Shown here piece after piece: positions 3,607 to 28,264 of a stretch of 64,000 nucleotides of DNA. Origin of the DNA: Takakia lepidozioides (lineage: Eukaryota; Plantae; Bryophyta); assembly GCA_030704615.1 (NCBI GenBank), contig CM060731.1, positions 29,140,001-29,204,000 of the forward strand, given 5' to 3'. The notes beneath the pieces were generated by a model that was not told where the DNA came from, did no database searches, and saw only the letters and a list, made by a program, of their open reading frames with translations. The translations under genes and the position numbers were made by a program. The number at the start of each line of letters is the position of its first letter. The first letter of the stretch is position 1.

Positions 3607-3953
3607 TCTTGCTCTGGAAAAGATGAACGGTTTCAAGCTCCCTGCGTGATTAGTTTGGAATTCATCCCATCGACGTCTCTCTTCCCGATGTTCCTGTCGT
3701 TCTTGCTAGCTCTTCATGGCTGGATAGTAGTAAACTTTCATCCAACTTCGACTTCAGCCACTGGCGGGAACCAAGTGGAGACTCCACTCGCGGGTGGTGC
3801 GAGGTCGGATCTGTGGGGACCTCACAGAGAAGCTGAATCACTGCACGTTGAAAGCAAAATGTCACAGTTTTGGGCTCTTTGAAAATCAGCTGGTGAACTG
3901 CACTCGTGGGTAATCAGGGATTGCTGGGAGGATTGCCATTTGTCTCTGAGGGG

Positions 3954-6900
3954 ATGATGAGGAAGTTCGTAACGCAGGCTGCCTTCTTAAACCCAAAATG
4001 TAATGGTGACGGTATTGCCAAGTGGGCGAGAAATGGCAGCATCAGACGATCTAATTGGTTTGTGACTGTGGGAGATAGCAGCAGGCTAACTGGAGTACGA
4101 GATTCCAGATTGTGCTTTCGGGCAAGCGCTTGGATTCAGCAGCAGGTGGGCAGGGCTCTCTGTCGCTGTTACCATGTTTTGTCCCCTGAGTTTCGCCACA
4201 ACCTATACAGTTTACGAGATTTTTGCTCGAAGTTTTCTACCGTGTCGAACGAGCGGAAGGTTTCACCGAAGACCTTGCAATTGGCCGACATTGAGTACAT
4301 AAGATGGTGGGATAAGAAGATGCAAGCTTGCCAGAAACCGGCAACCAGACAGATGATCGATCGACTAACCCAGGAAAATTTGCTTGGTTTGCATGAGTCT
4401 CTGCCGGGCTAGTTCTACTCCCAACTGATGCCAATAGCCTCTGCATCTCCTACTTGCGGAATTTGTTGCTCCATCCGCCACCGTATAAGGTAGCTGCCTG
4501 CGTCCAGTCTGCTTGCCGACACTTGGCGGAGATCAAGTGCTCAATTCCTGATTTCACATGTGTTTCAGCTGCCAAGCTCATGAAGCTGATAGAAGCGAAG
4601 GAGGCCAACCACATTGAGTTCGCTCGCATGCGCAACATGGCAGAAGATGTTGTCCACATGGCTAGCTTCCCGGAGCTAAGCCCTGTCCTGAATCTGCTTC
4701 TGGAACCAACTGTGCTAGCCACAGGTACCAGTTTGACGCCACTATGATCTACAAAATCTGTTCCAATGACGAAATCAAAATATGCACTGTACTAAGCTGA
4801 ATGACTTCATTGAGTATTTGGTATATTACGACGATAGCTGGTACATTAGACACATGTATGTAGTTATTCTGCAAACACAATCAACAACTACACTGCTCTG
4901 CCAGACATTGAAACATGCAGAATATGTAGCTAGAATCGACATAATGAAGGTCATCAGGGCTCCTACTGTATTAAGCTCCAGAGAGTCAGACACACAAATG
5001 TGCTTGCCCAAGGGTACTATGTACGTGCAGGTTTGCGTATAGAGAGGAGTCAGTTGGTGGACGACTGCAAGCTGCTGGCAAGCACAATAGGGGATGTGCT
5101 TGCTTGTGAAGGGGACCCAGACCAAGCCATAAGCATGAGTCCATCCATCCCCTTTGATTTTTGTCAAGATTTAGAGGTCAGTTGGAGGGGCCGTGTTAAG
5201 AGGGAGCGTGCTGAAGAAGTATATAAAAATGTGGATGATGCCTCAGCTGAACTATCTGTTGCACTAGTTACCGATTTTCTTCCCATTGTGAACTACGTAA
5301 AAGGGAATCAAAACCCTGTGGAGGGCCAAAAAGGGGAAATTTGCCACAGCCGTGAGAATCAAGCAGTGTGGTTCAAAGGTAGGAACTACAGACCATCTCA
5401 GTTGGGGAATAGGCCTGGGGAGACAGAGATGAAGCGCTTGATTCCAGCTTTTGATGGAAAGGGCAAGAAAGTGCCCGGAGAGGAGTGGTGGACTACGGAG
5501 CGTGTGGAAAATGCTCTGAGCAACTATAGATCTGCAGTCAACAGAGCAAGTGAAGAAATTGTTGAAATTCTAAGAGCCCTAGCAGAGAAATTGAAGACCA
5601 AGATGAATGCTCTCATTTTCATTTCTGTTCTTTCTGTCGTTGTGAAGACTTTCAACATGCACGTGAGCGAGGGAAAGAGGCGCAGATGGGTGTTCCCTTT
5701 GCTCTCACCCTGTAGAGACATATTGCAGCTTGGGGAGGTACCTGATCCCCAGAGAGTGGATGATGTCCAAGCTCCTAGGACAATGGTGGAAAATGTGGGG
5801 ACTGACAGGCATATGGTGCTGGTGGATTTGGTACCTTACTGGGAAGAGCCAACGTCTACAAGACCTCAACCAAATACAGTAGAAATGGAGTCCATATTCT
5901 TGCTTACAGGGCCCAATGGTGGAGGGAAGTCGACCATCTTACGCTCAATATGTGCAGCTGCAGTCATGGGGGTGTGTGGGCTAATGGTCCCTGCCCGTGA
6001 AGCCTTCATCCCAAAGTTGGATGCTGTCATGCTGCGTGTAATGTCCACAGACAGTCCTGCCGACAGCAAGAGCTCTTTCCAGATGGTATGCCTCGGACAG
6101 TCCATACTCTGTTGAATACACATTGATTGCACCTGCAACTCCAATGAAGTTTGTAGAATCATTGCCCAGTACAATCTGTTTGATCATGAATTAATCCGTG
6201 AAGCTTCATCTGGTATACATGGATGTTTACTGCAGGAGATGTCTCAACTCCGGACTATATTGGCAGAAGCCACTGACAGAAGCCTCGTGCTGGTGGATGA
6301 GTTGTGCCGGGGAACTGATGGGCAGAAGGGCACCTGCCTTGCAGCTAGTGTGTTAGAAACGCTAGACCACATTGGTTGCCTAGGAGTCCTCTCGACGCAT
6401 CTGCATGACCTTTTGGATATGGAGCTACAAACCACTAAGGTCGTCCACAAAGCTATGGGGACAAAGGACGTTGATGGCCAGGTGGTACCTACCTGGAAAC
6501 TGGTCGATAGCGCTTGTAGAGAGAGTTTAGCTTTTGAGGTGGCTAGGAAAGAAGGTGTCCCAGAAAGTGTTGTGCAGAGGGCGGAGGAGCACTATAGAGT
6601 ATTACTGAAGCGTAGTTGGAACACCAGGACGTTTGACTTAGTTGGTAATTCAGATAGTGCAGAGGAGAAATGTAAATTCAACCAAGCAGAACAGGACAGA
6701 ACTCAAGGAAGGGCTGCTGAGTGGAGGGATTCCCTGGAAAAAACTAATTCTTACAGAGAGATAAGAGACGTGATGGAGATCTTCAACAATATATGCAAAG
6801 AGAAGCTCCTCCAGATACAAGAGGCTGAAAGCGACAAGGGTGCCTTCTACCCTCACACTGTGGCTTGCGAGCTAGTTGGTCCTCGGCAATTGCCGCCGCC

Positions 6901-7183
6901 TGCAACCACCAAGCATTCATGTGTATATATGCTGCAACGACCTGATGGAAAGTTCTATATTGGGGAGTCCGATGCCTTGACGTGCAGGATTGAGAAGCAT
7001 CGACTAAAGTTGCCGGAGGCACCATTCCTGTATGTGATAGTGGCGAATAGAAGTGTGGCGCGTGAGCTGGAGACATTCCTTATCAACCAGCTCCCTCAAT
7101 TGGGTCTCAGCCTGGCGAACAAAGGTGTTCAGGGGCATCGCCATTTTGGAACTGCACCTCTCATGGAAGCCCCTCCCTTTTAG
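3954..7183 (+). pseudogene. MSH1: MSH1 (organellar MutS homolog 1) copy with internal deletion and frameshift at ~4409
   Basis: Transit-peptide-like start, then WWDKKMQACQKPATRQMIDRLTQENLLGL ending at TAG 4410-4412. Another frame resumes at 4409 with LVLLPTDANSLCISYLRNLLLHPP. The FYE-motif domain is absent. Introns 4725-5030 and 6086-6235 are GT-AG and phase-compatible. Confidence 0.85.
4409..7183 (+). CDS. MSH1: Uninterrupted 3' coding part of MSH1 (exons 4409-4724, 5031-6085, 6236-7183): MutS core, ATPase, GIY-YIG nuclease
   Basis: EANHIEF, GPNGGGKST (Walker A), DSPADSKSSFQMEMS, LVDELCRGT, STHLH, CRESLAFEVA, CVYMLQRPDGKFYIGESD; no stops after splicing. Confidence 0.85.
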
Positions 7184-7838: not shown

Positions 7839-8250
7839 TGTTGTATTCATATTTATATAGTAGAATACAGCAGTACATCACGGTGCTGATAGCATCAATA
7901 GAGGAGAAGCATACAACAATGCAGGCAAGGAATGATGACTTCTTGTTACTTGTTACTGCCAGCTCCCAACTTAGCCTGTACCAAGGTCTTTAGTGGTTTC
8001 TTGTCTCTCCTAGTTTAGTTTGTGTGTGTCAATACATCGTCAGTGGTTGCTTCTTGGAGCTTAGAGTGCAGGGTTAGCTTGAGAGCATGTGAGCTGTGTA
8101 CCAAGCCTTTAGTACCAAAGAGTGTATGCGACTTTGTCTTATGTAATACAATATTGTTGACCTCCAAGCAATGTGTACTTGGAGCCTTTGTGTATGATTG
8201 TGTGCTTTGTTTAATCTATGCATTGTTGGTAGAGTACAATAGGTTATGGG
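7839..8250 (+). mobile_element. Ty1/Copia 5' LTR (7839-8241) and first part of its PBS (GGTTATGGG)
   Basis: Short inverted termini TGTTGTATTC / GAGTACAATA, immediately followed by GGTTATGGG, the start of the half-tRNAiMet PBS known from Drosophila copia. Confidence 0.7.
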
Positions 8251-8588
8251 TAGGGAATTCCAAATAGGCCTTGATGTGAAATGCAGCGCAATTCACTTGA
8301 TCAGATGCCAATTCAATTGAATTTCGATGCCAATTCAATTGAACTAACCCTAATTTGCAATTCAATTGAATTGTAATCTATAATTTTTAACGCAGTTTTG
8401 TATATAATATATATAATATATTATCATGTGTATGTATATGTATATGTATCATATACACATATACATACGAGAGTATAAGATGAATATACATGCTGGCCCG
8501 TCTATTCCTGCTGCCCGTCCATCCTTTGCTTGTGGTAAGGCCTAAGTCACGACATGAGTCGCGTACCCTAAAGGAGAGATATATACTA
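8251..8588 (+). repeat. Terminal repeat copy 1 of an unclassified DNA-transposon-like element
   Basis: Near-identical to 16845-17211; starts TAGGGAATTCC; contains CAATTCAATTGAATT palindromes; preceded by TATGGG. Confidence 0.9.
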
Positions 8589-8599
8589 CACATATATAC

Positions 8600-8850
8600 T
8601 AGTCGAGGTATCGTCATTAGGTTGTAGCCCTGTTTGATATATCTACAGAGGTATAGTATTTCATTTTACAAGAAAAGTTGGCCAAATTAATCTATATTTA
8701 TGCGGAGGTATCGTCATGAGACAGTAGCCCTGTTTAGTATACCACCAGAGGTATAGCGCATGACTTACAAAGAAACCTGGTCAAATCAGCCTATATGCAG
8801 GTTGAGGTATCGTTATGAGGTAGTTGCCCTGTTTAGTATACCTACAGAGG
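8600..8850 (+). repeat. Subterminal degenerate repeats (GAGGTATCGTCAT...GCCCTGTTT...CAGAGG), about 3 copies
   Basis: Units start near 8605, 8705 and 8805. Confidence 0.7.
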
Positions 8851-9254
8851 GATTGGCAACGTACGCATTCTTATCTCTGTTTTTATCCCAGTCCTCGCTT
8901 GTTAGATTCTACAGCTGTTCATCGCGTAGCACTTGGCTACATGATGTCTATTGTTTCTGGTTTACTCAATAAGAAGAGTGGGATAGAAATGTCAAGTGAG
9001 TTTTTCATGGTACGTGTCATGGTTGGGTGGACAGGAAGAGGCCAAGGAAGAGGCAGCAGCAGAGCTGACACATTTGGTAAGGCAACCGTGTCCATCCTGA
9101 GTATGAATGATGCTGCACCCTCGGAAATACAAGATGCTTCAAGTAAGTTCAAAGAGCTTTCTTCTCTTTCTGGTGTGCTGGATATGTATGCGGAGGACAA
9201 CTAATATCACCTTAGGTGCCAAGGCAGAAACAAACAACCAAACCCTATTTCATT

Positions 9255-9290
<36 letters not shown>

Positions 9291-9294
<4 letters not shown>

Positions 9295-12200
9295 TTTCTC
9301 CCTGTCCTCTAGGAAGCCTATTGACATTGGGTGGACTTGAAACGGGAGTACATTAATGTCTCTGTCACTAAATGCCGGCCTTCTGACCTCGTGTCCTTGT
9401 TTGTTTCGACCTTAAGCGTTTTGCTTCAGGTAAGGTAGTGCATTGGATTTAGTTGGAAAGCTTGGGGCCTTTCCCTCTTTAGAATATGCCTACACGGGCC
9501 ATTCCCTGCAACTCCCTGGAGTGTGATCTCTGAATGGTAACAAGCGGACTCCTACCGCTTGGGGGCAGCTCCTCCGCCCAAATTGGGCAGTCGTATGCTC
9601 TGTCTAGCATACTCGGCACTTGGGCTCGGGTTGGTTCCTGTGCTTAAACTTATGGCCTGCGAAAACAATCAAAAATTTAGCTCCTATCAACATCAACACT
9701 CCTCAGGGTGATCCCTCACAAGTGGTTACTTATGCCAAATCTAGGGCTTCATGTGTAGTTTTTGGGGTGAATCCCAGGATGGACGATGTGTCCTTTAAAA
9801 CTACATGCTCTACCTTAGGCTTGGATTTCATGGTTAATGGTACCATCTCGAGACTTGATAACAGGGGTACGTTGAAGGTTGCAATGACCAAAAGTGCTTC
9901 TAATAGAGTCCCGCATCAATTCAATCTCAAAGAAGTTCGTTCGTGATTTCTTGTTTGACAATTGTGAAATTATCAACAAGGGTTTGAGGTACGAGCATAG
10001 TATCTGGCTAAAACTGAATTTGAAGGGCGGCATGAGTACTCTGCTGGACCTCTTTGTCCGTTGTGTTTACATGCCCACAGAGGGGACCCTGTGTGCTGAC
10101 GCAGACAAGGCCTCACAAGTTTTGAAGCTGGACTGTGCTTCGTTCCTTGCCAAAGGTCAGGTGGTACTATTGGGGGACTTCAATGCCTGGGTGGGCAAAG
10201 GGATCCATCAGGACGATATCATTGGACCTTTTGGTGAGGACGAGCTGAATTCTAATGGCAGACGGTTAATTAACTGTCTAGAAGAGCTTCAGCTTTTGAC
10301 CTTGAATAACAGGACAAGAGGTGACCAAGTGCAGTGGACTCGTGAGAAACCCCAAACTGGGGAACGTTCCATTGTGGACTATATCATAATGGACAAATTT
10401 TTGTTCCCCCAGTGTGCCGATGTGTTGATCGACAGAACTGATATTGGTACCTCTGACCACTTGCTGGTTTGGACTGACATCAAAAGGTGTTTTCCCACCA
10501 CCAAGAGATCTGTGAAACGTTCGATTCGGAAGTGGCGCATAGAAAAATTCCACAATGAGGAGGTCAAGGCTGAGTACGTCCAGCCCTTGCAAGAGGCTCT
10601 CCCTCATTTTGTCCAATCGCTCCAAGAACTTCAGTCACGCTCTGTTAACGCAATAAATGAAGTCGAAAGAGCAGTGGACTCTTGGGAGAGTTTCGTTTCC
10701 TCCGTGGCTGACAAGATCATTGGGAGGAAACTAATTGTCTACGGTAGAGCTGTTAATTGGTGGACTAATGAGATTAAACTCAAGATAGCTGAGAGACGAG
10801 CCCTCTATAAACAGTGCTGCAATTTGGAAACCAACAGAGAATTGTGGGCGAGGTACTACCAGCTCCGTAAAGATATCAATCAGCTTGTTAGGTCTCAGAA
10901 AAAATTATACTGGGACAAGTTATACAGTGAAATAAACTCAAACCACCATGGTGGTAATGACAAGAAATTCTGCTTGGCCCTTCAACGTTTGTACAAACCG
11001 AAAAACGGTCAGCAAGTACAAGCGCTGAAGACTACTAAAGGTGCAGTGGTGACTTCATCGGTTGACATTGTCAAAACCTTTGAAACTCACTACAGTACCC
11101 TTGGCAGAACTTCTAGGTATAACAGTGAGGGGTCTTCTGCTGAATGGAGGGACACAGTTGGAAAAACTGTTCCTATGATTCAAAACAGCCCTGATGAACT
11201 GGAGTATATTTCAATGGCCTATAATGCTCCCATTACTTCTTCTGAGATTGTCGAAGCAATTGAACATATAAATGGAGGTAAAGCTCCTGGACCAGATGGT
11301 ATTGTCAACGAGCTTATCAAGCACGGTGGCGATCCCATGATAGAGGCCCTATTTCTCCTCTTTAACCTTCTCTGGAAGACTGAAATGATCCCCTTTCGCT
11401 GGCGACAGGGGGTCATTGTCAATCTATACAAGAAGGGTGACAGAGAATAACTGGGGAACTACCGTGGCATCACGCTCCTCAATGTTGTTGGCAAGACATT
11501 CTGCTTATTTATAAGTACTCGTCTCGAGGTTGATTTGGAGTCTAGAGGTTGTTTCCACGAAGGCCAAGCTGGCTTTCGGCGAAACAGGGGCTGTGTGGAT
11601 CATATCTTCACTCTAAGCAAGATTATCCAGGGAAGGAAAAAGGAGGGAAACCCACTTATGTCTTTTTCCTGGATGTCAAAAAGGCTTATGACACAGTGTG
11701 GAGAGATGGCCTATGGTTCCGCCTCTGGTCTTGTGGGATCAAGGGAAAGATGTGGAGACTTGTCCACAACTTGTATGCTCACACCAAAAGCTGTGTCACT
11801 GTTAACGGACAAAAGTCCAACTTCTTTGACTTAGACCAAGGTGTAGCTCAAGGATGTACTCTCTCCCCTCTGCCCTTCAATGTTTTCATCAATCAACTCC
11901 TCGAGGATGTGGAAAGTGACGGATTTGGGTTAAGGGTGGGTGATACCACCATACCAGCCCTTATGTTTGCGGATGACTTCGCAGGCATAGGGGAGACTCC
12001 AACCAATCTCCAGGAGTTGATTGATTGCGCGAAGACATACTTTGATCTTTGGGGGCTAGAGGCTAATGTCAGCAAATGTGCAGTGGTAGCATTCAACGAC
12101 AGAGGAGAGGGAGGAAGTGATCTTAAGTGGCAGTGGGGTAGCCAAGAGATCCCGGTCCTCCCTTCCTACACTTACCTGGGCGTTGAGTTCTCCTCCAATT

Positions 12201-12800
12201 GTAATTGGGATGCACATATTCGGAAAGTTGTTCAAACTGGCAAGGGCAAAGCACTGGGGCTCACTAAATTTTTCCACTGCAGAGGGGTCAACTCTGAGGT
12301 TAAGAAAACCATGCTTTGTCGCGTTATTAGACCTGCCTTGGAGTACGGATCTGCTATATGGGTTGATAACTCCAACCAGGCTAAGTCTCTAGAATCCATT
12401 CAAGTGGGGGTGGTTAAGGAGTGTATGTCAGCATGCTCCAAAACAGCCAATGTGGCTGTTCGGGGTGAGTTTGGCATTCCGTCCTTCAGCTCCCGACGAC
12501 ATGAATTCAAGGTCAGATGGTGGGGTCAGCTGCAACATATGCCCAACACCAGATATCCTAAATTAATCGACTCTATATCTTGGAAACAGGACCGCCCTGT
12601 CAAACAGGCTAAGTCCTGGCAGAAGAGAGTACAAGAGATCCTCAAGGACCTCGACCTGTATCCGCAAGGCTTGACCCTGCTGGATATGTCTGACTTAGAG
12701 GCTCTTGCCTCAGCCATGTCTGTTGCCATGAGATTGTCTGATGAAAATGAAGTTAGGCAGAAAACTTCCCTGAACTTGTTTCCAGTCTGTGACATGGGGG
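9291..12800 (+). mobile_element. APE-RT LINE (RTE/RTEX-like), one nonsense codon and one frameshift in RT, 3' truncated, nested in the TIR-like element
   Basis: LLGDFNA, SIVDYI, SDH (APE); KAPGPDGI, NYRGITLL after TAA 11448-11450, QAGFR, FLDVKKAYDTV after a shift at ~11640, GVAQGCTLSP, LMFADD, YTYLGV. The APE N-terminus is missing. Boundaries are approximate. Confidence 0.93.
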
Positions 12801-13489
12801 AGGACATCTTGGATGACCTCAAGGATAAGAGTAGGTGTGAAAGTTACTTGACAAGCTTTTGTGCAAATTGTAACAATAGTCAGGGTTTACTGTGGGTACA
12901 GGGAAGCTACATGCACCACTCGTGACAAGGTACATATCTAAATCAATCTGAGACATGCTTATTTCAGATGTGGTGTTCAGCATAGTTAACAATGTTAGGA
13001 AATGAGTTTAGGGAGTTGGTTGGCTTCATTTTGTTTCTGCTGTCATTTCCATTGGAAGGGTGTGACTTGAACCTTGCTAGCCAGCAACATGTGTTTGCAG
13101 TGCTTGTATTCTTTGAAAATGTGAGCAAGAAGGCCCTAACTGGTAAACTAGTCTGTGAGCAAAACACATGAAGAACAATTGGAGTGAAGGGGTTACTGTT
13201 TGTGTCATGGCTGGTCTGTAATGCTTGGAATTAAGTTTAGGTTGATGGTCAGTGTGACTGTTGAGTGTTTATTGTCTCCGCAATATTAGGTTGCTGGCCA
13301 ATCTGCTAAAAATAGAGCCACATCTGAAGAGCTTGCAGGCAGCAGTAGACAATTTCAGGGTGTGTTCTCTGCCCTATAACAACATTGTCTTTTTGTGAAG
13401 ATAGGAATAGGGGTCCAGTGCTACGAGCTCGGAGCACCGAGCTTTTCAAACAACATTGTTTTTTCCAGGAGATAGGAAGGTATCTAAAC

Positions 13490-15117
13490 ATGGGAAGATC
13501 CAACATAACAGGGAAGCGTATCAAAGTGAAGTCAAGACGTCATGAAGCCCCTTCATCTTGCGTTGTGTCTGTTGTAGCAAACAGTGACGTCGTACCAACT
13601 CCTGTTACCTCGACAGAGCCGGCGCGTACAGGAGGAGGGCAAGGAGTGCTAGGAGGGCAAGGAAGTAAGTTCGTGCTTATTTACAACTCTTGGGACTCCT
13701 AGGGGATTCCTAGTTTCAAGTACATTTTCATTCTTTTATTGCTTGGATTGTATGCAACGTCTTTACTTCCACAGAGGTATTAAAAGGTGTCTTTTCTGTA
13801 CAGAGGTATGTGCATTATGTGCAGGATAGGTGTAGTGCTAAACACAGAAGTATAATAGATGCCTAGAGACAAATATCTTTACAAAGGTATCATCATGTAG
13901 GTGAATCTCCATTTCTAAAACCCTGGTATGCCTAATTTCACACATCCACTATCTATGTTATTTAGGTGGTTCGTTTGCACAAGAGGGGGTGCACTACAAA
14001 CGGGAGAATGGACATTGGTTTTGTTTGATCTGCGGCGAAGGACCTTCTATGGGTTGGAAGGACAAACATAACTTCCAAAACCACCTTGTGGTAAAGTGTG
14101 GAGGTCCTCGCCTCCTTCCAGGTAAGCCTGGTCGCCCTACGGATGGGAAGAAGAGAAAACAAAATTACCATAGAACGAACATGAAGATCTATGGGGATGC
14201 AGATAAGAGAAAGAGGGTGTATGAGAACAAGGCGCGTTACAGAACCAAATTGAAAGCGGAGCGACTGTGGGAAATGGCACAAGGTGGTTCTATGGCCATG
14301 GAAAGCAAGAGCAAGCAAGCACCATTGTTGGCAACATTGTTCGATGAAGATGTGTACGACCACTTCGGGATTCCCAAATGGGGAAGGGGCGATTTATCAG
14401 CTAAGACCTTGGATGATATCGTGGGTGCGAATGCGACTGGTAAGTGGGTGAGGAACAAACTTGCTCAGTACAAACCGATTAGGGGTTACAAGCAAGACTT
14501 GGCACGGATGAAAAGAATCTATAGGGATGGCAAGGATTACTGGAAGATGCCTCGTCGCAAGTTGCGAAAAGAGGTGGCCAACAGCTTGCTAACCTACCAT
14601 GAGGAAGAAAGCTGCAAACAAAGGTATTATTCTGCCTTTGCATACTTCTTGTTTGTATCGTACATGTGTTCACCAATCAGTGCGATTTCAAACTAACCCT
14701 TGTGACTAAATATTTTGTAGATCGTTGGTGTTCACATTGACAAAGGCAGAGTTTGTCAAGACGTACGTCAATGCAGAGATAGAGAAGTGGAGATTCGTGG
14801 ATCCCCTTCATGCCAAAGCGTGTGCTTTAGCGACCAAGCGCTACAAGAAAAGTGAAAAGTGTGAGTGTTCACTTGTCAAATATTTCATGCTATGTTTCTA
14901 TTCAACATGCCAATTGGACTCTAAGATGTGTACTTTGTTTCCATGTTGTATAGACAAGCAACTAGACAATGACGACAATGCAAACACGGAGGATGAAGAA
15001 GGGACAAACAATGATGGAGGAGATGAGGGAGAGGAGGAAGAAACAGATGACGACGATGCAGATGAGGAGGAGGAGGAGGAGGAGGAGCATGATGATGATG
15101 AAGAGGAAGGAATGTAG
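13490..15117 (+). CDS. Hypothetical 378-aa protein with CCHC zinc finger, AT-hook-like motif, basic core and D/E-rich tail; exons 13490-13664, 13966-14623, 14721-14860, 14954-15117
   Basis: Three GT-AG introns with matching phases give a 1137-nt open frame. Motif WFCLICGEGPSMGWKDKHNFQNHLVVKC followed by PGKPGRP. Confidence 0.7.
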
Positions 15118-15556
15118 AACAAATCGAATCAGGGCCTCTTTTTTGGCTACCTTCACCTTGTAAGTATGGAGAAAATTCTGAGACTTGTTTGTGTGTTTCT
15201 TCTTACTCTCTTTTTGACATTCTAGTTGCCTAAGAAAAGTGCCCAAATAATGGTACAAAGATACGGACTACACTACTCCATTGTAGGGAGGCTATGTCGC
15301 TATTGTCCTACCAAGAGGAATGTGGTTTGCAGGCTGTGTAGGCGCCGGGTGGTTTTCCTAGCCTCAAGTATAGCTCCCAGGAACATTTGCTAAATGGGTG
15401 CATACAACATAAAAGTTGTAGGCCGAGGCTATGTACATATTTTGAGGCTGTGGATACAGTGACTGCTTTAGGATTAAGCATGTAAATGGGTACATTGGGA
15501 GTCCAATTCACTTACTCTTTGGCCATGTTGCTGATCTGGTGCTTGTGCATTTGTAG

Positions 15557-15676
15557 GATTTTAAGCAGAAGTATCCAGACGTGATTGTGCCAAACCCGCT
15601 AGAAGCCATTCAACAGCTGCGAAACAGGCAGTCGATGCTTCAGGATGTGGCCGATCTAGACCTTTGTGACTATGTG
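15557..15676 (+). pseudogene. Isolated exon of inositol-tetrakisphosphate 1-kinase (ITPK)
   Basis: After the ttgtag acceptor: DFKQKYPDVIVPNPLEAIQQLRNRQSMLQDVADLDLCDY, matching the plant ITPK AIQHLHNRQSMLQDVADL motif. No neighbouring exons seen. Confidence 0.8.
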
Positions 15677-15904
15677 GTTGGTTTTAGGCCAGTACACAGT
15701 GCCTTCAACCAGCTCTTATATCTATTTGACCTGGAGTTTCGGTTTAGGGGCATCAATTTAATCAATTTTACTCACACTGAGAACCAAATTTTGAGTAACC
15801 AGTCATATTGCAGACTTAAGTTAATTTAAATCTCAGTGATTGAGTGAGTGAGTCCACGGCAATGCCTGGATACATGAGAAGTTGACCTGCATTTTGTTGT
15901 TTTC

Positions 15905-16844
15905 CATTTCTTGCAACTTTTGGAATTTGAATATAGTCCTGGACGACCATCCGATCTGCTTCCTTCTTTTCATAGCCCCGTGTTTTCATTTTGCTCGTGT
16001 TGTTTGCAATCTGGGTATCCCGCAACAAAGAGGAAGATTTAAAGAACTTAGTTGATGAATTATGTTCTGCATGATTCCCACATCTGAGGAACAACGGAAT
16101 CACCAGTCATGAAGCAGGTTAGAGGTCTGCTACAAGTGGTCACTTGCGTATGGGCTAATATGGACTTGGTAGTGATCTTCCTGTGCAGACCGTTGTCCAT
16201 GTGCTTTTCAATCAATCTGCGGTTCCAGTACAAAAGAATGTAGAGGTATTGACCACAAGGGGAAGCAATATAACTTGGCATAGGGGCTGATATGGACTTG
16301 ACATTGATCTTCCATGTGCACACCTCTCTCCATGTGCTGCTCATCCACCACTCTGAGCTTAACCCAGATGGCATTGGAGGTTGTGCAGCTACTGACATTT
16401 TTCAAATACTTCTTGTCAATGGCGCTGACAAAGAAGACTGAACACCTGACTATCTATTTTGATCCATTCAGTGTAAGTAGGCAGGTTTTCCGGAGTGTTT
16501 GCGGGCTTAGTTGTTGTACCATCAACATAGCCCATCAGTTCTTTGCCCAGAAACACTGCTCGCATTTGGAACTTCCAGAGGTGGAAGACTTGCCCGTTAA
16601 ACCTATCGATATTCCCAAGATCCCGAGAGGCGTCCATGCTAGAGTACTACACAGTGTAAAAAGACGAATAAATAAACTATGTCCAAGGCTGGGCTGACGT
16701 AACTAGAACTTTGTGGACAAAAAGATCAACACAGCTGACGCTATGTGACGAGATAGCTACAAAGTAACATTGGCAGAGATGCTAAGGGTACTGAAAAAAA
16801 AAATTAATAGCGTAGCTTTACAAGTCACGTATAAAGGCCCCATA
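15905..16844 (-). mobile_element. Ty1/Copia second half of PBS, leader and degenerate gag/protease fragment
   Basis: IDRFNGQVFHLWKFQMRAVFLGKELMGYVDG (UBN2-type gag start) and SNAIWVKL. On the minus strand the segment begins TATGGGGCC. Confidence 0.85.
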
Positions 16845-17211
16845 TAGGGAATTCCAAATAGGCCTTGATGTGAAATGCAGCGCAATTCACTTGATCAGAT
16901 GCCAATTCAATTGAATTGCGATGCCAATTCAATTGAACTAACCCTAATTTGCAATTCAATTGAATTGCTGACTGCAATTCAATTGAATTGTAATCTATAA
17001 TTTTTAACGCAGTTTTGTATATAATATATATAATATATTATCATGTGTATGTATATGTATATGTATATGTATCGTATACACATATACATACGAGAGTATT
17101 AGATGAATATACATGCTGGCCCGTCTATTCCTGCTGCCCGTCCATCCTTTGCTTGTGGTAAGGCCTAAGTCACGACATGAGTCGCGTACCCTAAAGGAGA
17201 GATATATACTA
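16845..17211 (+). repeat. Terminal repeat copy 2 of the same element
   Basis: Same as 8251-8588 plus 23-bp and 6-bp unit duplications; preceded by CCCATA (reverse complement TATGGG). Confidence 0.9.
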
Positions 17212-17519
17212 GAGAGAGAGCGAGAGGGGAAAGGGAGAGAGAAATGAAGTGATGAAGGGTTTTTAGGGCAGAGGTGCCCTAAAAGTGAAAGGATCAAATC
17301 AGTTGGAGGACGAGAAGTAACGAGAGAAGAATGCAACAACAAGTTTAGGGTTGAGCGGTGGTGGAGCGGTGGTGGCGCTATGTATGATGGAAGCCTTCTT
17401 GGATCACCAAATGACAAGATCTGCCCATGAGTAAGCACATTCCCATATTGGCATGAGTTTCCCCAATCATTGATAAAGATATCATTTTAGCTAAAGCTGT
17501 AGTTCTTGTGTACGTGCAG

Positions 17520-17617
17520 GTGACTCATGAGTTTTGAGGAGAGAACTTTAGGGGTAGTAGAGTGGGTTACCAAACGCTCCTCAACACATACACTGAAAGA
17601 AAGAGCTTGATCACATG
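17520..17617 (+). pseudogene. Isolated degenerate exon of xylose isomerase
   Basis: Between the gtgcag acceptor and gtttgt donor: [21 protein letters not shown]...ELDHM, versus the family motif [26 protein letters not shown]..RELDH. Confidence 0.75.
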
Positions 17618-18410
17618 GTTTGTCTTCAACCTGCCCACACTGTGTACTGTGGTTTGCTAATACATTTTAGGATAGCCTGCGCACCAACGACCCTGAGAAA
17701 TTTTTGTGTATCAATCTCTTCTGAGGATGAGTTTGACTGGTGGGTGTTGCTTACAATCTAAATATGTTAGCATGTTTCATCTGCACCTTGAGACACTAAC
17801 CAATTTCATACTGCCAAGCCCTTATAGTGTCAATATATGGCTATGTACATATACCAAACATGATACCACTGTAAGAGTATCAACGTCTAAGAGTTGATAT
17901 ATTAAACTCTCTATCGAACACACAACCCAATTGCAACATGATACCTTTGCAAGGGTATCGAAACAAGATTATTGGAGATAATTCTCGAAATGAATATGTC
18001 TTTTGTTTTCTCTGGGGTTGTGTCATGGGGGCCAGATACTACTGCCAGGGGAGTACATGATGATGCAGGGGAAGCCATTCATCAATTGTGAGGTTTGAAA
18101 TTGTTTGTTTCTTTCAGAGGTAGCCATATATCTTTTGCCAGTGAATCAGAGGAAGCTGAAGCACTTCTGAGTAAGCCATCTGTCTCCCAAAGGGTCCCCC
18201 AAAAAATGAGATGGAGCTAGCCCTGGCATGCACATCAAACCCATTTAGCTCACAAGCAGTTTAAGGAGGTTTGCATAAACATTTGGCCAAGGTTTGAGGG
18301 CTTTGCCTCATTCCAACAACAATATTTACCAAAGCACATAACGTGCTTGTAATAACACTCGGGCTGCATGTGGGGTTCATGGGATGCTGAATGGAAGTTG
18401 AGGAATTTGA

Positions 18411-18539
18411 AAGGCTGGAGTGGGAATCGAGAGCATGAATGCTGAGTTCTACAATAGTGATGAGATTATGGTTGTAGTGCAACGTTGTAGTGGGTTTGTT
18501 ATTGGCAGCCCAACACTTGCAAGCCACATGCCCACTCCT
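18411..18539 (+). pseudogene. Flavodiiron protein (FLV) flavodoxin-domain fragment
   Basis: KAGVGIESMNAEFYNSDEIMVVVQRCSGFVIGSPTLASHMPTP matches the KAGV.VE...GF.IGSPTLGGH.PTP motif of cyanobacterial and plant Flv proteins. Confidence 0.8.
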
Positions 18540-20089
18540 ATGAAGGTGTGACTGGTGATCTAGTGACCAGTCACTTAGTCAAACCAGCGATACGCCGCCA
18601 CGTTGGTTCACGGGTGTAACGACACGTCAGCAATCCTCGTCAGCGTTGTTGACGCCACGTCACGTCATGCCATGTCATTCCTATAACTGCGGATAGAACA
18701 GACGGAAGGGGGGAATGCTAGATCGTGAGCCCAGAGGCGTGAGGTAGGTACCTATTTCCGCGGAATGATTTACCCTTTCTAGTCATTGCAAACTACATCT
18801 TTAACATCCATCCCACCGCCGGTCCTCATGTCATAAACTGCGATTTGATAAGTGTGCGATTGCCGAAGTGAGATCTTTATCATGGTAGAGGAGATATAAT
18901 GATTCTTGGAACGAGAAATTGGTGGAGATAGAGGGCATTTTGTGCCATAGATTAGCTGGATGAAGTATGGAGTATCTAAAGATTGAGAGAATGTTCTATA
19001 GTATGTGAGGTGATCATTACAAAGGGTGGAAAGAAGATGTCAACGTTTTAGATCTATGGACTAAGTCTCTCTCTTATTAGTGTTCTATGTAGTTCCAGTT
19101 GTCTAGCGGATTTGAGTCCTTGTGTATTTGTGTGTTGATGGCATCCTTATTGTCTGCTAGCTCTGGCAAGCTCATCTTAAAAGAAAGTATGAAAAAATAG
19201 GAGGAAATACCTGACTGATGCTCACTCAACGATAAACTTTGTATTTTTATGGATCTTCCTTAAGACAACCGAGCCAGGCCCAAGCTTGAGCTTAAAACCC
19301 CATAGGATTTTTGGATTTAGAAGTTTGAGGACACTGTTATAAGGCCACGAGGGTTGTTACCACCAAGACTTAGTAGAAAGAACTAACAGTACACAAGGTG
19401 CGAACATAGGCCTTGAAGGTTGCATAGATTGGGCAAATACTACAAAACTTGTATGCTATAGTTGAGATTGTGCGTAAGCTACCACTGCAAGAGTGAGCCA
19501 AGTAGTGTAACTCGGGTATTAGTATTCCAATCGGTGTAACTCTCTGTAACCCCTGTCTCTCATGTAACTCTGGTTCCATTTTGTGTAACCCCGAGTGGAG
19601 TTACACACCTCATCGTGTAACCCAATGTAATCCCAAGTAGAGTTACACACCTCGTCGTGTAACCCCGACTGGAGTTTACGCTCCTTCACTTCCATGTCAC
19701 TCTCAAGAGAGGGTGGGGGTAGATTTGACATGCCGGAAACCGGCGTATCATTGTGTCAAAGGTTGCATGTGTGCATTAAGTTCTTACGTTATCCCTATTA
19801 TCTTCCCTTTTATTATATTGACAAATTAACTTCTTAAGTGTCTAAGAGCCCCACTGGCTGCAGGACGATGCTAAATAAATATTCGTGAAGGCCTCAATAT
19901 ATTGAAAGACAGAAATTTCATCATTTTCTTTGCAACAACTGAGATGTGTTCAGCAAAAGCTCACATGACCTACGCAGAATCAACATGTTGCAGCATGAAA
20001 TTCTAAGCCTATAGAGAAACTGTGAGGTAACGTGCTGTCATTTGAGATGAAATGAAAAAAATGCTTGACGCCCACGTATTCACACCCTC

Positions 20090-20940
20090 CATACCCAAAG
20101 GCCAGGACTACTTTTCAACACTTAATGGATACTGGTCTTGTAGGTAACCTCTAGTGGGAATATCCAAGAGTGTACATTTGATGACATCAATGTCTACTTT
20201 GCTACTTTTAAAGCTCATTTGAAGGATTCCAAGGGTGATGTGCATGTTACTTATTGTGGCTAAAAGTCAAGGCTATAAAGTGCGACCCTTGTATGGAAGA
20301 GTTGCATTTTTTGGGCCAGAGCTACTTGTATCAATCTTGACCCTGACAAAATGTAGGCAGCATGGGAATATCCATCTTCCAAGGACAAGAATTGTGTTGA
20401 GAGTATTTTTTGGGTTAGCTTCTTATTACCACTGATTTATTTTACAAGTATTTTGCTAGGTTGGCTGCTCCCCTCACACGACTGCTTTGCAAGGATGTTT
20501 CGATTTGTCTGCGGGTCTGCTCATGAGATTTTTCATTTGAGGAAACTAGAGATAGCTCTCACTACAACACTAGTATTGTTGATCATAACCCTGACGTCAA
20601 TCCATCATTTCCGTTGCAAATAGATGCACTTGTGTTTGTTGTGCTAAGTTAGATGAAGGATGTAAAAGAGCATACGGTGGCTTACGCTTCCAGAAGCTTG
20701 GACGAACATGAAGGCAACTACTCTATCCCGGACATAGAAGGTTTTGCAGTGTCAAATGTTTCAGGCAATACTTACATGGGTGTGCATATATTGTGGAAAC
20801 ATATACATGCCTCTCGAAGCCTTAGTTATATCACGAGAGTTGACTGCCCATCGCGCAAGGTGGGTTTTGGTTTTACAGGTTTTTGACTTCTCCATGGCAT
20901 GCAAGCATGGGAAGACAACATCAACACGGATGCCTTGACC
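20090..20940 (+). mobile_element. Highly degenerate Ty3/Gypsy RT-RNase H (host element possibly ~18547-21700)
   Basis: GYW, DDINVY, LRVFFGLASYY, AAPLTRLLCKD, VAYASRSLDEHEGNYS, ARWVLVLQ in broken frames. Confidence 0.8.
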
Positions 20941-22238
20941 TGTGGGGAAACCAAAACTCGGGATCCCTGCTAGAACCCTACACAATACTCTAGATGATTT
21001 GTTGACTACCATTTGCCTCCAGTCTCTCCATGAACAACTAAGTTTATGGAAACATTGGCAAAGTTACGAAGCAGGGGGCAGCAGCTTAAAAAGAGGAACT
21101 AGGAGCTGGAGCCACGAAAGCAAGAAAATATAAAGGCAAACTTCATTTCTAAACAAGGTAAAAGAAGGGTGTAAGGAAATAGCGTAGTTTTTTAGTAGTT
21201 AGACTAGGCCCTTTCATGAAAGACTACCTAAAGGGAAGCTCCGAAAGCATAGCCAATTGAGTGGCTGGAAGCATCCATAAATCAATCGAACTTGGTCTAT
21301 AGGCAGGCTTGGCTTTTGTTTGTCTAGGCATCTATCTCAGAACTTGAGTCATCTGAGCTATCCTAGCTGTCTGCAATTTGAAAAGTAAGCCTCTTGCACC
21401 ATAAATGGCTGTCACATTTACATACGACAACTATTTGTGCCATGCAAAATGTGAACATACCCTAATTACGGTAGGAAAATACAAAGGAAGAGGTGTCCCA
21501 TGGGCCAGTGCAGTACTAGTGCAAAGTGGAGGTGGTAGAGGTGACTCATGGATCGGTGGAGTGATGCAAAGTGAAGGCGGAGGTAGCTATGCTGCTCTCC
21601 AATTTGCATGGTAATTAACCTCCTCTAAGTTACCTGCCACATCAGCCGAGAGGATAGTTTATCATGTCCAAGCTGAATGGGCCATGATAAGAACTGGCAC
21701 GACTGATAGCATGTTCACTGGAGAAACTGTTGGGCATGGTTGCCGCCTATTGCCAAAAGTCAGCTGTCAGCTTCTTCGAGTACTGTGGTGTACTAACGCT
21801 TGGTGCATCCCTTTGAGCCTGGGCATATAACACAATATTTGGCACAAACCCAGGGCCCACCTTCCCTACTCAGGTGAGGCCAAACTCTACTGTAAGTACA
21901 ACTGAGGGGTTACTACAACAGAGTTGGACAGATTCCACTACACTCTAGTTAATCAACTACTTTTACTCGCTCACTATTGAGTATCCTTTGCGACAAACAC
22001 CATCTTTCCGCAATAAAGTGGGACGTGGCTATTTACGTATCATCCAAAATTGTGCTTGAGTTGTACAGATCTTATTCTGAAAGAATCAGGTATGCAAGTT
22101 GCTCCAAAACTGTTCTATGCGACCTTGTCCGAAACATTCTAAACCTACCTTGAATACCGGTACATTGGCCAATAATATCTAGGCGCAGCTCTGAGCTCCA
22201 CCAGATTAGTCATGACCAGAGAAGGGAGAAGATCTTAT

Positions 22239-25200
22239 TCACGCTTGAGCTGCCAATTTCTTGCCTCCCTGTGTTAGCTTGATCCATTCTAGGACATGAG
22301 CACATGCCTCTGGATTTGAGAAGATCCTGAAAACCATCACTACACAATTACATGCTGCCTTAACCAAATAATACGATCTATCTCTGTGAACATGCCCTTC
22401 CCAGTCACAACCTCAGCCAACCAATCAAGTCCATGGAACCAAAATATATACAACCGGGAGTATAATTTCTAACCTGTTTGTAGCCTGATAGTACTTCAAG
22501 ACTTTTCCTTCCTTGTAGCTGGCCGCTTTGCGTGCCTCACTCCCCTTCAACTCGGTGGCTAAGCCAGGGGGCCTCCGGTACTCTTTCTCTATAGCTTGCA
22601 ATATGTCATCCTGTTAGTGCAAAGGATTTATAAGTGTTGGTATTGCAATTGCACGGTGTAAATTGGAAAACTCATGCAGGTAATAGTATTGGCCCTGAAG
22701 ATTTCATTGTACATGCCAGTCCCCATCACCTTCAGCAAACAATTGAACCCAAGATGAATGAAAGGGATGAGATGTGAGGCACTGACTAGGGGTTGGGAAG
22801 CATCGATCCAATGGAATAGGCGTACTTCGCTACGCGCATCACTGCGAAACCATGTTAACTGCTTCTTCACCAGGTTCCTGCCAAATGGGAACTCCTCAGA
22901 ACCAGATATAAGGTACCTATACTCTCTGAGTGGCTTGTTAAGGGAGTTAAAAGCCAAACTGGGGCTGCCATCACAATTTTGTCACGCAATACTATTTTTG
23001 GTTGTAGTACCACGCAATCCAGAACCATCTCTCAGAATAAATCCATACTTGACATGAAAAAAAAAAATACCACACAGTTACACTTCTACTCAAATTAGCA
23101 CACATTGGTACAACCAAATTTCTAGAATAAAATCTATCCTTGGCAGCGTGTGTGTGTCTCAGACCTAGATGCTTGTTGGTATTCTGACAAAAATGCTAAA
23201 AATCGCTCCTCTGTGGTCATACCCCCCGCTGCACGGCACTCCAATAGAGATTCCATTGCCTGCTCCAGTACATGTACCATCAAATTAGTTGAGTTTCCGG
23301 CAAAAAGATTTGACGAGTGAATCTTCCTAATTGTGGAGCCCCCTATAGACCAGACAAGATCATCAACAATTAAGCACAACAAACAAAACCAACGGATGTA
23401 GTACTTCTTCAGGCATTTAACCCGCCTTCTACACAAGGAGTGCCAACAGAGGTCACCTTATTTGGTGCTATCAGTAATACCCTGACAGCTGGTTGCTCGC
23501 CGTCAAGTCTTACACATGAAACCTCTCCCAAGCATCATGGCTTTATCAATTTTCTGTTTGCCCTGTGCATAACCGGCTAGCCCTCAACTGCATCCAGTTG
23601 AATGGACCTCTCAGACCTGAAATGAAGGGCAATCTGAAAGATAAAAAGAGAAAGCATACCTCTTGATAGCCAATGGCACGGGATGCAGAGTTTGTATCAG
23701 GTTGGACACCCAAGTCAAGTAGCCATGATGCCTCCTCCAGCAGGCCTCCCATCTCTGCATCCAGTTGTGAAACAGCCAGGTGTGAGAGACTCCAAATGAT
23801 GTTTTAGAGAAAGACAACCATTCCATTGAGAGTGTCTTTCCAGCTACATGCAGCATTGTATTGTGGTGTCATACCTCATATCACATACATTTCGGATAGA
23901 AGACTGTCATACTTTTAAGTAGGGCGGACCACTTCTTTTGGAAAGATACACAGAACTAAATCACTGAATGCAGTGATAGGCACTTCGACAGCATACAAGT
24001 GATTGAAAACATTATTGTGTGATTGAAACCCTCAAGAGAGTTTGTTTATGTGAGGTCAGATTTCTATGGTGCCATCAAACCTGCTCAACACATGACCTCA
24101 AAAGTGAGGTAACCCGATTTACTGAAAATCGTTTCTCCAAAGTGTATGGAGTGTGCAGCCAGCATACAACGTCCCCCACCAGCGAGAATTACTAGGTCCA
24201 AATTACTCCATTATCTCAGCACAGAATAGTAGTATTCAATGCCGAGTTTACACACATACCAGACAAGCTCACATCAGGATTATGCCAGACAGTACCTGCT
24301 ACCATTTGCTCACACCGAAGTTCAATCCAATGGTACAGCTCTGCACGGTGTTGATACAAAAAATAACACTGGAAGTCGTAATCCCACTCTGTATCCCCAT
24401 TTATTCTATCCTCGCATTTCACCAAAGTTCCGTTTGGCTTAAGACATGCGGCGCGTGGACAGCCTGATACCTGTATGATCATTCCATTGTTCAGCATCAG
24501 CCATATGCACATAAATAATCATCTGTTCCTTTCCAGAAATCTCCAGATGATTGTGGAAATCTTTGTGTACTGATAAGTCTCATTTGCGGCCTATTGTTGT
24601 TGTGCACACCTCTGCAGGTTCTGGAGGTACTCAGGTACTGATCATTCACGAGGAAATTATGACATGATTGGGATTAAATGAAGCTAGCCACATACTGCCA
24701 ATTAAGCCCTAGAGTGGGTGATGAAGAATGAAAAAATAGCAGAGAGAAGTTGGTGGTGCAGATATGCATGCACATTAAGTGATGACTTGTCCACTTCTCC
24801 ACAGACCTGCAGTAGTGTGTAAAGTGATCTAGCAACATGCGAGAGGCCACCACAGGGTACCTTAGCAACTTCCAGGGCGCGTTGCGGCCGGTACCAGTCA
24901 TTCCGTGACAGGCTGTCGGCGGTCATCGGGTCACCAGCTTGAGCAAGCATGTGCACCCCCGTCTCCCAGCCTCCTCCCACGCTCCACCAACTGGGCTACA
25001 TCTGCCTCCACTGCAGCACGAACCTCTGGTGTAGCCTTTGGGACGCCAGCCTTCCCATTCATGTACCTGAGCAACCCACACAATTACATGCTCAACCCCT
25101 GCTGTACTGCTATGGACTCTCATGTCATCTACATGCTCTCACCACTCCAAAAGCATTAGTACATGTGCTATGAACTGAATGTCGTGTACCTTTATCATAA

Positions 25201-27592
25201 TTTAGAAGATAAGAATGTCCTGAAACAATGCAAATCAGCAGATAAGTCAAGACGGAATAAAGATGTTCACAGCGTTCCTCTACATGCAAGAAACCAATTG
25301 AGATAATCACTTCTCCTTACTGGCCAGCTGAGGACTTTCAATTGAAGGCAGCCACAGGAGAACACACTAGTCAGTTGAGAAAAGAGGCACTTATGCACAC
25401 ACACCAGCGCAAGTACATGCCTGTGCCCCCGACAACAATGGGCACACGGCCCCTGGCCAGCACTTTCTGTGTGGCAGGCCTTGCATCACGAAAAAAATGT
25501 CCCGCTGTGTACTCTGCATCCACCTACAGCTATTAGTCCACATTCAAAACATAATCAAGGTCCAGTTGCAATTGCAGCTATTCTCACTTCTCTGGCAATG
25601 TTGTATTGTTCTAATCGAACCGAATTTTGCAAGGTTTAGAAACCTTCAGGTGTGCAATCCTGCATATAACTTGCATTTGGTTGCACAACATTCCCCTGCT
25701 GCAGAAGAAATCACCTCGAGCCTCTCCAGCAAAACTCTGAGGTGGCTGTCACTCCTTTTTCAATCTTTCCCTTTATAAAAAAATAGACAACAGTCTCAAC
25801 ATTTTTGGAGTCATGACTGGCCTTACTCCACTCACAAAACACAGTTTGGAATAGAGTAAAAACCTTCAGTGGGAAGGGCCATGTTCCTCAAGTGGGTGGA
25901 ATACCCTGGAGAAGAAACCACAGCCTTTTTTTGGTTTGACACTTGAATTCAAGGGAATAAGTTCACCTAAAGAGACAGCCATCAGTCTCATAGATATTCC
26001 CTCACATAGAACAAGACATCGCCGCAACCACAAAAGATCGGCATAATGTATGTGGAAGGTCAAAATTCAAGGATTCGCATCAGTAGAGGGTTATATAGTG
26101 GAGAGCTTCTCTACTGCCAACTGTTGACCCTCAAAAGATGACACAGTCCTTACTAATCTGCCCCACAAGTGCACTGCAATCATGTGTAGATAATTACTAG
26201 CGGCCTCTGTCCTAACAATTAGTACACCAGGATGCCAACACTTCCAGTGTAAGAGCAAGACTTCACAAATGTACCCACCCCCCGTTCATGCACAGGTGTT
26301 TTAGCACTTCCCACGTTGAGGCCCTTATATACCTGCATGTCCATCCGTGCACCCGTATTTTCTCAATCATGCACTTGTTCCCCAACAAAAGAACCCGGTG
26401 CAATCTATTCTGCACAAGATCGCACACTGATCTCGGCAGTTCACGTCATCTCCTCTAACTCTACAATTTCGAATAATTGGTCCAAAATCACCAATTTGGC
26501 CAAGTAACTGCGGATCGAGACAGGCTCGTCTCCAGAAAGGTCGCTCCACCCAAAGAACCAAGGCGGGGCTTAAGATCTTGTTTGTAGTCCCCATGCATTT
26601 CAAGATGCCCTTCAGCAAAAGAGAGAATACGTTAGAGCACGTGAGTTTCCCGTCATGGCAGATCCCAGTTACAAGCCTGGCATAATCCAGCCGCAAAAAC
26701 TGGGATCCGTGGCTATCGGTCGACATAATAATGGACCTGCCCATACGCTTTGCTTCCACGACAATGCAAGCAGCAAGAGCGCAGAACGAGATCAAGGAAA
26801 GCAGGAAAGCTGCGCCAGAGCGATACACTGACGTGAAAGAGTGTTAGTGCTGGATCAAGAAATCATGATCCCGTGAAGAACAAGAATGGTACAAAAGGAA
26901 CGTTCGGAAACTTCACGTTGGACAGTCGCAAAGCTGTATGCTACAGCGTCCTGCAATAGCACTACTTTCTGATGCTTGAAAATATGTTAGTTCACGTTGT
27001 CAAACACGTTGTCAAATGGCTAGTTGAACAGCATCACAGCCGCTCTGCTAGCAACCACAAACAACGCAGTAACAAACACGAATTCTGTGGACCTCAGCAA
27101 TGCCGCAGCATTCATCAGCCACAAGTGACAGTGCGAAATCTTGAATGACCAACAATGAATAATGCAACAATTCGATTCAAGTCCCAAGTCCTGGCAAGGA
27201 AATCAAGACCTCCATCACCGACATTGATCACAGCTGCTAACCTGCACAGAGTCAGCGCTAATGATCTCTCCTCCCACCAGCTTCGCCAGCGCCAGCGCTA
27301 CCCGCGTCTTCCCGACTGCGGTCGGCCCCGCGATCACCACCACCCGCGCCTTCTGCGTGCCTACTGCATTGTTCCCCTTGCTTATCCCTCTCTCTCTCTC
27401 CGCACTTTCAAGCCTTCCCGCAAATTCCAACTGCGACCGATGACCAAGCTCCGTCGTCCCCCCCTCTCCCTCCTTGAGCAGCCTCGGCCTTCCCCCCTCC
27501 CCGATTGCCACCTTGGCCCGCACCGCCACCCCCGCAGACGCACGCCACCGCAGCCCACCTCCCTCCCTCTCCCACCCTGCATCTCCCCCCAT
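22239..27592 (-). pseudogene. IPT9: tRNA isopentenyltransferase, IPT9/MiaA type; exons 27242-27592 (start uncertain), 26279-26332, 25864-25905, 25405-25513, 24861-25066, 24296-24470, 23660-23754, 23165-23259, 22787-22877, 22474-22610, 22239-22326; two frameshifts
   Basis: IAGPTAVGKT, EIISADSVQ/VYKGLNVGSAK, VPIVVGGTGMYLRW, NDWYR.QRALE, AIGYQE, KKQLTWFR; all introns GT-AG. Exon 3 is 1 nt short (gives TGA) and exon 5 is 1 nt long. Confidence 0.9.
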
Positions 27593-28264
27593 TGCACACA
27601 AATTCCCCACTGCGACTTGAGAGGCAGGGGCTGGCCCGCTGAGTCAACATGTATGCAGCGCCACTCCGTCCTCCACCCCTCCCTCCCTCCTCCCTCCCTC
27701 ACCAATTCTGCCCTCCCTCTCCTCTGCAGCGTCCCGGACCTCCATCGCTGCGAGCGCGACTCCAATATATACGCGCGCTCGCTGCCATAGCTCGCTCGCT
27801 GCCCCACTGCCCCTCCTCCTTCCTGTCCACGTGCCCGTCCGGTTCGGCCCGCCCGGCCCAGCCCGGCCTAGGCTACACAATCTGACTCCCGCAGCCGTCA
27901 TTCCTTGCACGTGCCACCCCCGTGCCTCGCCTTGGGGCACGCGTTCCTTCCCACCGCCCCAGATTCCATTCCTGTGTGCCCACCCCGCCCGCGATGTTAT
28001 TATTAGTCTCCTCCCCGGCTTCTCTGCTCTCTCTCTCTCTCCCTAACACACACTCTCTCCCTAAACACTTCTCCCTAACACACTCCCGAGTCCCGACTCC
28101 CTAGCATTGTGGGACACACTGGGATTAACGGTAATGGATCTCCAGTGTGTCATTTAAGACCACTTCTCCTGCCTTCATTCTTTGCCTGTTGTACCGTGCT
28201 TCGCGCTATGTATGTATGTAGTCGCAAATTGCAATGTGTAGGTTATCGGTTCGGAGAAAGAATA

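Follow-up and report, generated by a model that had tools for sequence, protein, structure and literature searches.

The described transposons closest to the subject of this study, an element lying between positions 8251 and 18595 of a 64,000-nucleotide stretch of the moss Takakia lepidozioides (contig CM060731.1 of assembly GCA_030704615.1; the whole stretch is called the window here), are the GingerRoot and IS3EU elements. GingerRoot elements (Cerbin et al. 2019, PMC6839031) make 6-bp target site duplications (TSD), carry TA..TA termini in 72 of 77 cases and measure 3.9-12.9 kb, with terminal inverted repeats (TIR) of 100-150 bp in Selaginella. Gene fragments are present in 22 of the 77, only six of these 22 retain the DDE motif, and the Selaginella cargo takes the form of fragments only, barely expressed (PMC6839031). 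Their plant range spans 18 moss and three lycophyte species, moss members being known from read matches to the DDE sequence while the detailed description comes from one lycophyte (PMC6839031). Angiosperms lack GingerRoot, and in plants Ginger-type clusters are seldom found (PMC9804982, PMC12973397, 10.1101/2021.09.26.461848). IS3EU elements, which form one lineage with GingerRoot, have TA..TA termini and usually a 6-bp TSD (PMC10045372), and are described as encoding two proteins (PMC10853768). Rust IS3EU families end in TAYGG and have TIRs of over 30 bp (PMC12730594), and a non-replicative mode has been suggested for Styx of Zymoseptoria, an IS3EU relative (PMC10853768). A literature search, with Repbase and Dfam outside its reach, found no moss description of IS3EU/Ginger TIR elements.

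The Takakia element is probably a transposase-less, multi-copy TIR transposon of the IS3EU/GingerRoot superfamily, sitting at the start of a Copia retrotransposon and with the right 2.2 kb of this copy inverted. A preliminary description, made from the letters alone, had labelled it a long terminal repeat (LTR) element of a poorly described or new family. The label is misleading, as the ends are TIRs in the family, and the second claim gives way to the published hallmarks of GingerRoot: TA..TA termini, a 6-bp TSD, a length of 4-13 kb and gene fragments. The element gives no evidence for a new superfamily. It is probably not unclassified and is likely a new addition to the described GingerRoot group; its ends are longer than those published.

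Terminal repeats, target site and inversion

The two ends, the target and the inverted segment are laid out as follows.

8245-8250, plus strand: TATGGG, left copy of the TSD, abutting the left TIR
8251-8588, plus strand: left TIR, 338 bp, TA terminus, three exact CAATTCAATTGAA units
16354/16355: inversion breakpoint 1, where element interior abuts reversed Copia gag (joint, loose ends and unitig 16325-16872)
16355-16838, minus strand: target Copia, 5' part with leader and start of gag (ATG at 16637); single copy, lying within the inversion
16839-16844, minus strand: TATGGG, right copy of the TSD, inverted, abutting the right TIR
16845-17211, plus strand: right TIR, 367 bp, four exact palindrome units; direct here, inverted relative to the left TIR in other copies
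17212-18595, minus strand: right interior of the element, inverted here (contig joints)
18595/18596: inversion breakpoint 2, where 11 bases of other copies are lost and a different multicopy repeat begins

Pairwise alignment finds 335 of 338 aligned bases identical between the two ends, which also differ by indels of 23 and 6 bp. Both open with TAGGGAATTCC, whose exact matches in the whole window are these two only, and both begin with TA, the terminus reading TAGGG. The palindromic motif CAATTCAATTGAA has 12 matches in the window at no more than one mismatch (0.32 expected), all within the two ends. When the flanks were compared at lengths of 2-12, they matched at 6 bp alone (TATGGG, one insertion examined); a chance flank match of at least 6 bp arose in 75 of 200,000 random trials. 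The preliminary description had these near-identical, palindrome-bearing ends and the TATGGG beside each of them right; within the window the ends are direct, not inverted.

How do terminal inverted repeats come to lie in direct orientation? The answer lies in copies elsewhere, seen as contigs for the region 13150-19050 in public sequencing runs (X1, X2, X5, X7 and X9 were used, with a junction counted as bridged at 31 letters on each side). A contig of X5, a separate study, joins 16354 to 18595 on opposite strands with a side of 179 letters. The same joint is made by an X2 contig at a depth of 1070 (a single-copy unitig has 41), with a short side of 30 letters, and loose contig ends at 16354 and 18595 in X1 agree with it. 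Between the two positions, other copies have 11 bases that are absent from the window copy. Since these joints connect opposite strands, the ends are inverted in the family and direct in the window copy: the family is a TIR element, and the direct ends here are due to inversion of 16355-18595. Direct repeats in every copy, which the preliminary description had named as the finding that would speak against it, were not what these runs contained. The flipped segment of 2,241 bp comprises the right interior, the right TIR, its TSD copy and 484 bp of Copia; the two TATGGG copies are oppositely oriented, and they mark the exact point at which the target Copia is broken. Unitig 16325-16872 spans both window junctions at single-copy depth and with no differences in both same-sample runs, X1 and X2. 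Restored to its uninverted state, the element measures 9,866 bp, nested retrotransposon included, and its end in the window is at 18595, not at 18540 as first given. A 2.2-kb inversion can in this way disguise a TIR element as a direct-repeat element, and after it the window copy would no longer be mobile as one piece.

Contigs that reach the TIR start (13 in X1, 14 in X2) continue into differing flanks, with agreement of 0.44 and 0.43; the element is multi-copy, inserted at many different sites. Depth ratios to the single-copy unitig, which are rough values from single-unitig depth and do not equal copy number, are 9-11x for the finger gene carried inside (some 10 copies), 15-21x near breakpoint 1 and 30-32x in the right interior. 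Read depth over the outer TIR greatly exceeds that of these interior segments and is far above that over the inner TIR, and some contigs diverge at 16897 but retain the palindrome, so the TIR core common to the family may be shorter than 338-367 bp.

The segments around the breakpoints have features of their own. A tandem duplication with a spacing of about 130 bp (16141-16360) ends at breakpoint 1, and a different multicopy repeat (18596-18880) starts exactly at breakpoint 2. Other copies have at least 110 extra bases at 17674-17675, and the window copy is thus internally deleted there. Depth over 17681-18074 is much above that of the remaining right interior, which suggests another repeat nested in, or common to, the element.

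The Copia target was recognised by its gag, which reads on the minus strand away from the second TATGGG (PF14244, E 2.2e-05). The preliminary description had placed TATGGG in a Copia primer binding site; the Copia is borne out by this gag, and the binding site is presumed here from a sequence motif and from where it lies, with an LTR-like low-copy stretch on one side and gag on the other. That stretch, 7899-8244, lies just before the TSD, is likely the Copia LTR, and occurs in X1 in two versions with depths of 66 and 53 and 20 differing places. Moss Bryco elements are primed by half-tRNA-Met (PMC6317226). Neither the remainder of the Copia, sought beyond 18595, nor a second LTR was found within the window.

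A model can be proposed in which an autonomous partner would supply an integrase-like DDE transposase in trans; this enzyme would bind the TIRs, with the palindromic units as its likely binding sites, and would move the element by cut-and-paste with a 6-base staggered cut of the target. Host exons would have been taken up as DNA. The inversion of 16355-18595, with its 11 lost bases, would have arisen after insertion by break repair, as both breakpoints lie away from the TIRs and other copies have continuous interiors; alternative transposition as its cause was rejected on the same two grounds. A TA TSD with GGG ends was also rejected, as it would need a pre-existing inverted-site duplication of TATGGG.

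Superfamily assignment and rival classes

The assignment to IS3EU/GingerRoot is made because ends, TSD, cargo and host agree. The element has a 6-bp TSD (at one insertion), TA..TA termini and, in other copies, inverted TIRs, and its host falls within the plant range of mosses and lycophytes: the neighbouring MSH1 gene has its best match in the moss Ceratodon (56%, with 100% of the query covered; 373 bits, the next match reaching 300; one gene, best match, no tree). Like the Pack-type GingerRoot of Selaginella lepidophylla, it combines these termini and TSD with a length in the same range and fragments of host genes, and GingerRoot too lacks the transposase in most cargo-bearing copies. Unlike most Selaginella copies, which lie far from genes, the window copy is about 1 kb from a host gene. 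Likenesses to IS3EU, Styx included, are the TA..TA termini, the 6-bp TSD and the carriage of extra genes, IS3EU being described as two-protein elements; a difference is that the transposase is absent here.

No transposase was found by Pfam in 18 frames covering the non-LINE interior (that is, outside the nested long interspersed nuclear element, LINE) and the right flank, with stops read as X. A scan of the whole window for short DDE motifs gave two loose matches, both outside the element; very decayed DDE remnants could escape, as the published DDE sequence of GingerRoot was not used as a query. Scans of prokaryote, viral and metagenome collections yielded no locus with an integrase-like DDE transposase and these ends, and the terminal motif had no matches in metagenome and viral contigs. 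The earlier view of a Pack-type DNA transposon that is non-autonomous, has a 6-bp TSD and lacks a transposase is supported.

Several points weigh against the assignment. The superfamily call is drawn from ends, TSD, cargo and host, no transposase having been seen, and the length of the TSD is known from one insertion only. The ends measure 338-367 bp against 100-150 bp in Selaginella, and the element carries an intact multi-exon gene with spliced contigs, whereas Selaginella cargo consists of hardly expressed fragments. The TAGGG terminus is one base apart from the fungal IS3EU end TAYGG, and it resembles the Ac/Ds end. As to the junctions, unitig 16325-16872 reaches 30 and 28 letters past them, below the 31-letter threshold; X1 and X2 are possibly the window's own sample; and breakpoint 2 and the left TIR junction are not among the unitigs listed. 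In the finger gene, the X7 contig of exon 2 has a 1-base insertion at 14324, and nine of 11 changed codons are non-synonymous, with no stops (among 40 of 116 difference rows), which gives no sign of purifying selection.

Could the ends belong to a hAT element instead? A non-autonomous hAT, either from a 6-bp-TSD lineage like hAT6 or with an ordinary 8-bp TSD that has lost two bases on one side, would turn the palindromes into subterminal transposase-binding repeats. It would account for the Ac/Ds-like start and for a finger whose pattern is loosely like that of the BED finger. Yet there is no 8-bp flank match at this site, and neither six frames of the non-LINE interior nor four relatives of the finger protein contain a hAT or BED Pfam domain. 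hAT families with a 6-bp TSD do exist, but hAT5 and hAT6 sit among animal hAT families (PMC12730594), and a hAT origin is unlikely.

A long-TIR Pack-MULE or foldback element whose TSD is unusually short at this one site would share the captured exons and the chimeric spliced product, and published MULE TIRs may exceed 300 bp. Selaginella Pack-MULEs have an average length of 8.8 kb (PMC6839031). MULE TSDs are reported as 7-12 bp, however, the flanks match at none of these lengths, and the non-LINE interior has no MULE domain, which makes this reading quite unlikely.

It is improbable, too, that the element stands for an undescribed DNA-transposon group marked by the finger gene, whose TA ends and 6-bp TSD would be convergent with GingerRoot. 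Pfam, PDB folds and named proteins offer no relative of the finger protein, the ends exceed the published GingerRoot TIRs in length and no transposase is seen, but GingerRoot, from the same host group, covers every structural feature except TIR length. Least probable is a direct-repeat element (LTR, large retrotransposon derivative or terminal-repeat retrotransposon in miniature), a pair of independent insertions or an assembly artefact, which the direct ends in the window and a junction unitig just under the bridging threshold would allow, and against which stand the opposite-strand joints of other copies, the oppositely oriented TSD copies with the Copia split exactly at them, and the clean single-copy unitig of both same-sample runs.

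Other classes were rejected by published criteria (including PMC10741241). The KDZ and Academ candidates of the preliminary description both fail on TSD length, which is 6 bp here, 3-4 bp in AcademX and 9-10 bp in AcademH (PMC10045372), 8 bp in Zisupton and Dileera and 7 bp in Kyakuja, which has CA..TG ends and no TIRs (PMC12730594). Polintons need AG termini, polB and integrase; the termini here are TA, and none of these domains is present. The inverted ends of the family exclude an LTR retroelement, and also a Replitron, for which repeats of 5-11 bp are reported.

Finger gene and captured exons

The interior of the element holds the following features.

8605-8874, plus strand: three subterminal tandem units of about 100 bp each (repeat comparison)
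8824-9204, plus strand: frame of 126 amino acids, with an X7 contig on 8880-9112
9410-12824, plus strand: nested high-copy LINE, broken, 3' end cut; 5' edge approximate
13490-15117, plus strand: intact C2H2-like gene of 378 codons, four exons, GT-AG introns, open frame
15557-15670, plus strand: captured ITPK-like exon, weak match (E 0.032), four of four matches being ITPK
18411-18548, plus strand: captured flavodiiron (diflavin flavoprotein A)-like exon (E 7.9e-09)

The finger gene, correctly reported as intact in the preliminary description, has exons at 13490-13664, 13966-14623, 14721-14860 and 14954-15117. Its protein is laid out as a C-x2-C-x16-H-x4-C finger, a GRP motif, a predicted helical part and an acidic tail. 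X7 contigs skip introns 2 and 3 at GT..AG, which none of the three DNA runs does; intron 1 is predicted from GT-AG and reading frame. X7 is taken as RNA by guess, no public run being recorded as RNA, and the gene is spliced in this one probable RNA run. The X7 contigs differ from the window sequence, so their source is another copy or accession. X9, likewise guessed to be RNA, does not cover the finger gene and carries no evidential weight.

The finger protein has no Pfam match. Two relatives were found among 1.84 billion representatives (E 1.8e-06 and 8.2e-05), and a profile search drew 15 finger-family proteins from 1197 candidates, all of them in Logan or ENA contigs; the sole name seen among them is 'hypothetical protein'. 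Finger, GRP motif and helical part are common to these relatives at 20-27% identity. Several are truncated or lack one finger cysteine, and in this they probably resemble many other transposon-borne genes. None of 611 candidates was a longer (fused) relative of the finger exon, and no finger-family locus was confirmed in metagenome, viral or prokaryote contigs. The predicted structure of the finger exon is uninformative (predicted local distance difference test score 46, predicted template modelling score 0.23), and a fold search with it gave no match under E 0.001. In the protein atlas the window exon has no match at 0.9, and relative P0126 has a 0.90 match, to be read as a lead only, to a cluster in which 16% of members carry zf-C2H2. 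The P0126 cluster consists of finger/GRP/helical proteins of about 220 amino acids, with 26 members, in Logan, ENA and JGI contigs only.

We infer that the gene either belongs to the element as a DNA-binding accessory or is a long-standing passenger. IS3EU is said to encode two proteins, and no second gene is named for GingerRoot in the excerpts of its description (PMC6839031). The moss family makes it possible to ask whether plant GingerRoots have a second protein as well. A model in which the finger protein is that undescribed partner, a DNA-binding accessory that would serve in binding the ends, targeting or anti-silencing and that transposase-less copies keep intact and expressed, its transcript also being spliced into the ITPK exon, is speculative and rather doubtful. 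If true, relatives of the finger protein would serve as markers for GingerRoot families throughout the bryophytes. A moss family whose structure is defined, and which has long ends, captured exons and an intact, spliced gene, would be a useful addition to GingerRoot.

The host-gene fragments first noted from the letters were confirmed as the flavodiiron-like and ITPK-like exons. A joint in X7 from 15159 to 15557 splices the 3' untranslated part of the finger gene onto the ITPK-like exon. An X7 contig of 1624 nt matches the element at 18395-18541 only, and exon-sized matches to longer X7 contigs lie in the right interior at 17674-17736 and 18173-18243. The frame at 8824-9204, which has no Pfam or PDB match, is possibly another captured gene piece. 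The nested LINE was likewise recognised early and does have an endonuclease frame (9888-11447) and a reverse transcriptase frame (from 11546); it is not whole, its 3' end being cut at 12824, where its family sequence continues, and no TSD of the LINE was found at the window insertion.

Genomic neighbourhood

The target of the element lies about 1 kb downstream of MSH1 (3660-7183, plus strand), which has MutS_V and GIY-YIG domains and two very long 3' exons. To the right, 19000-21000 (plus strand) holds a decayed Gypsy-like remnant of reverse transcriptase and RNase H (PF17917, E 6.6e-05 at 20653-20883). Two putative genes were identified by eye, a tRNA isopentenyltransferase-like gene at 22400-27650 (minus strand) and a DHHC acyltransferase-like gene at 60000-64000 (plus strand). 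Between them, at 33100-33820, lies a minisatellite with units of about 51 bp.

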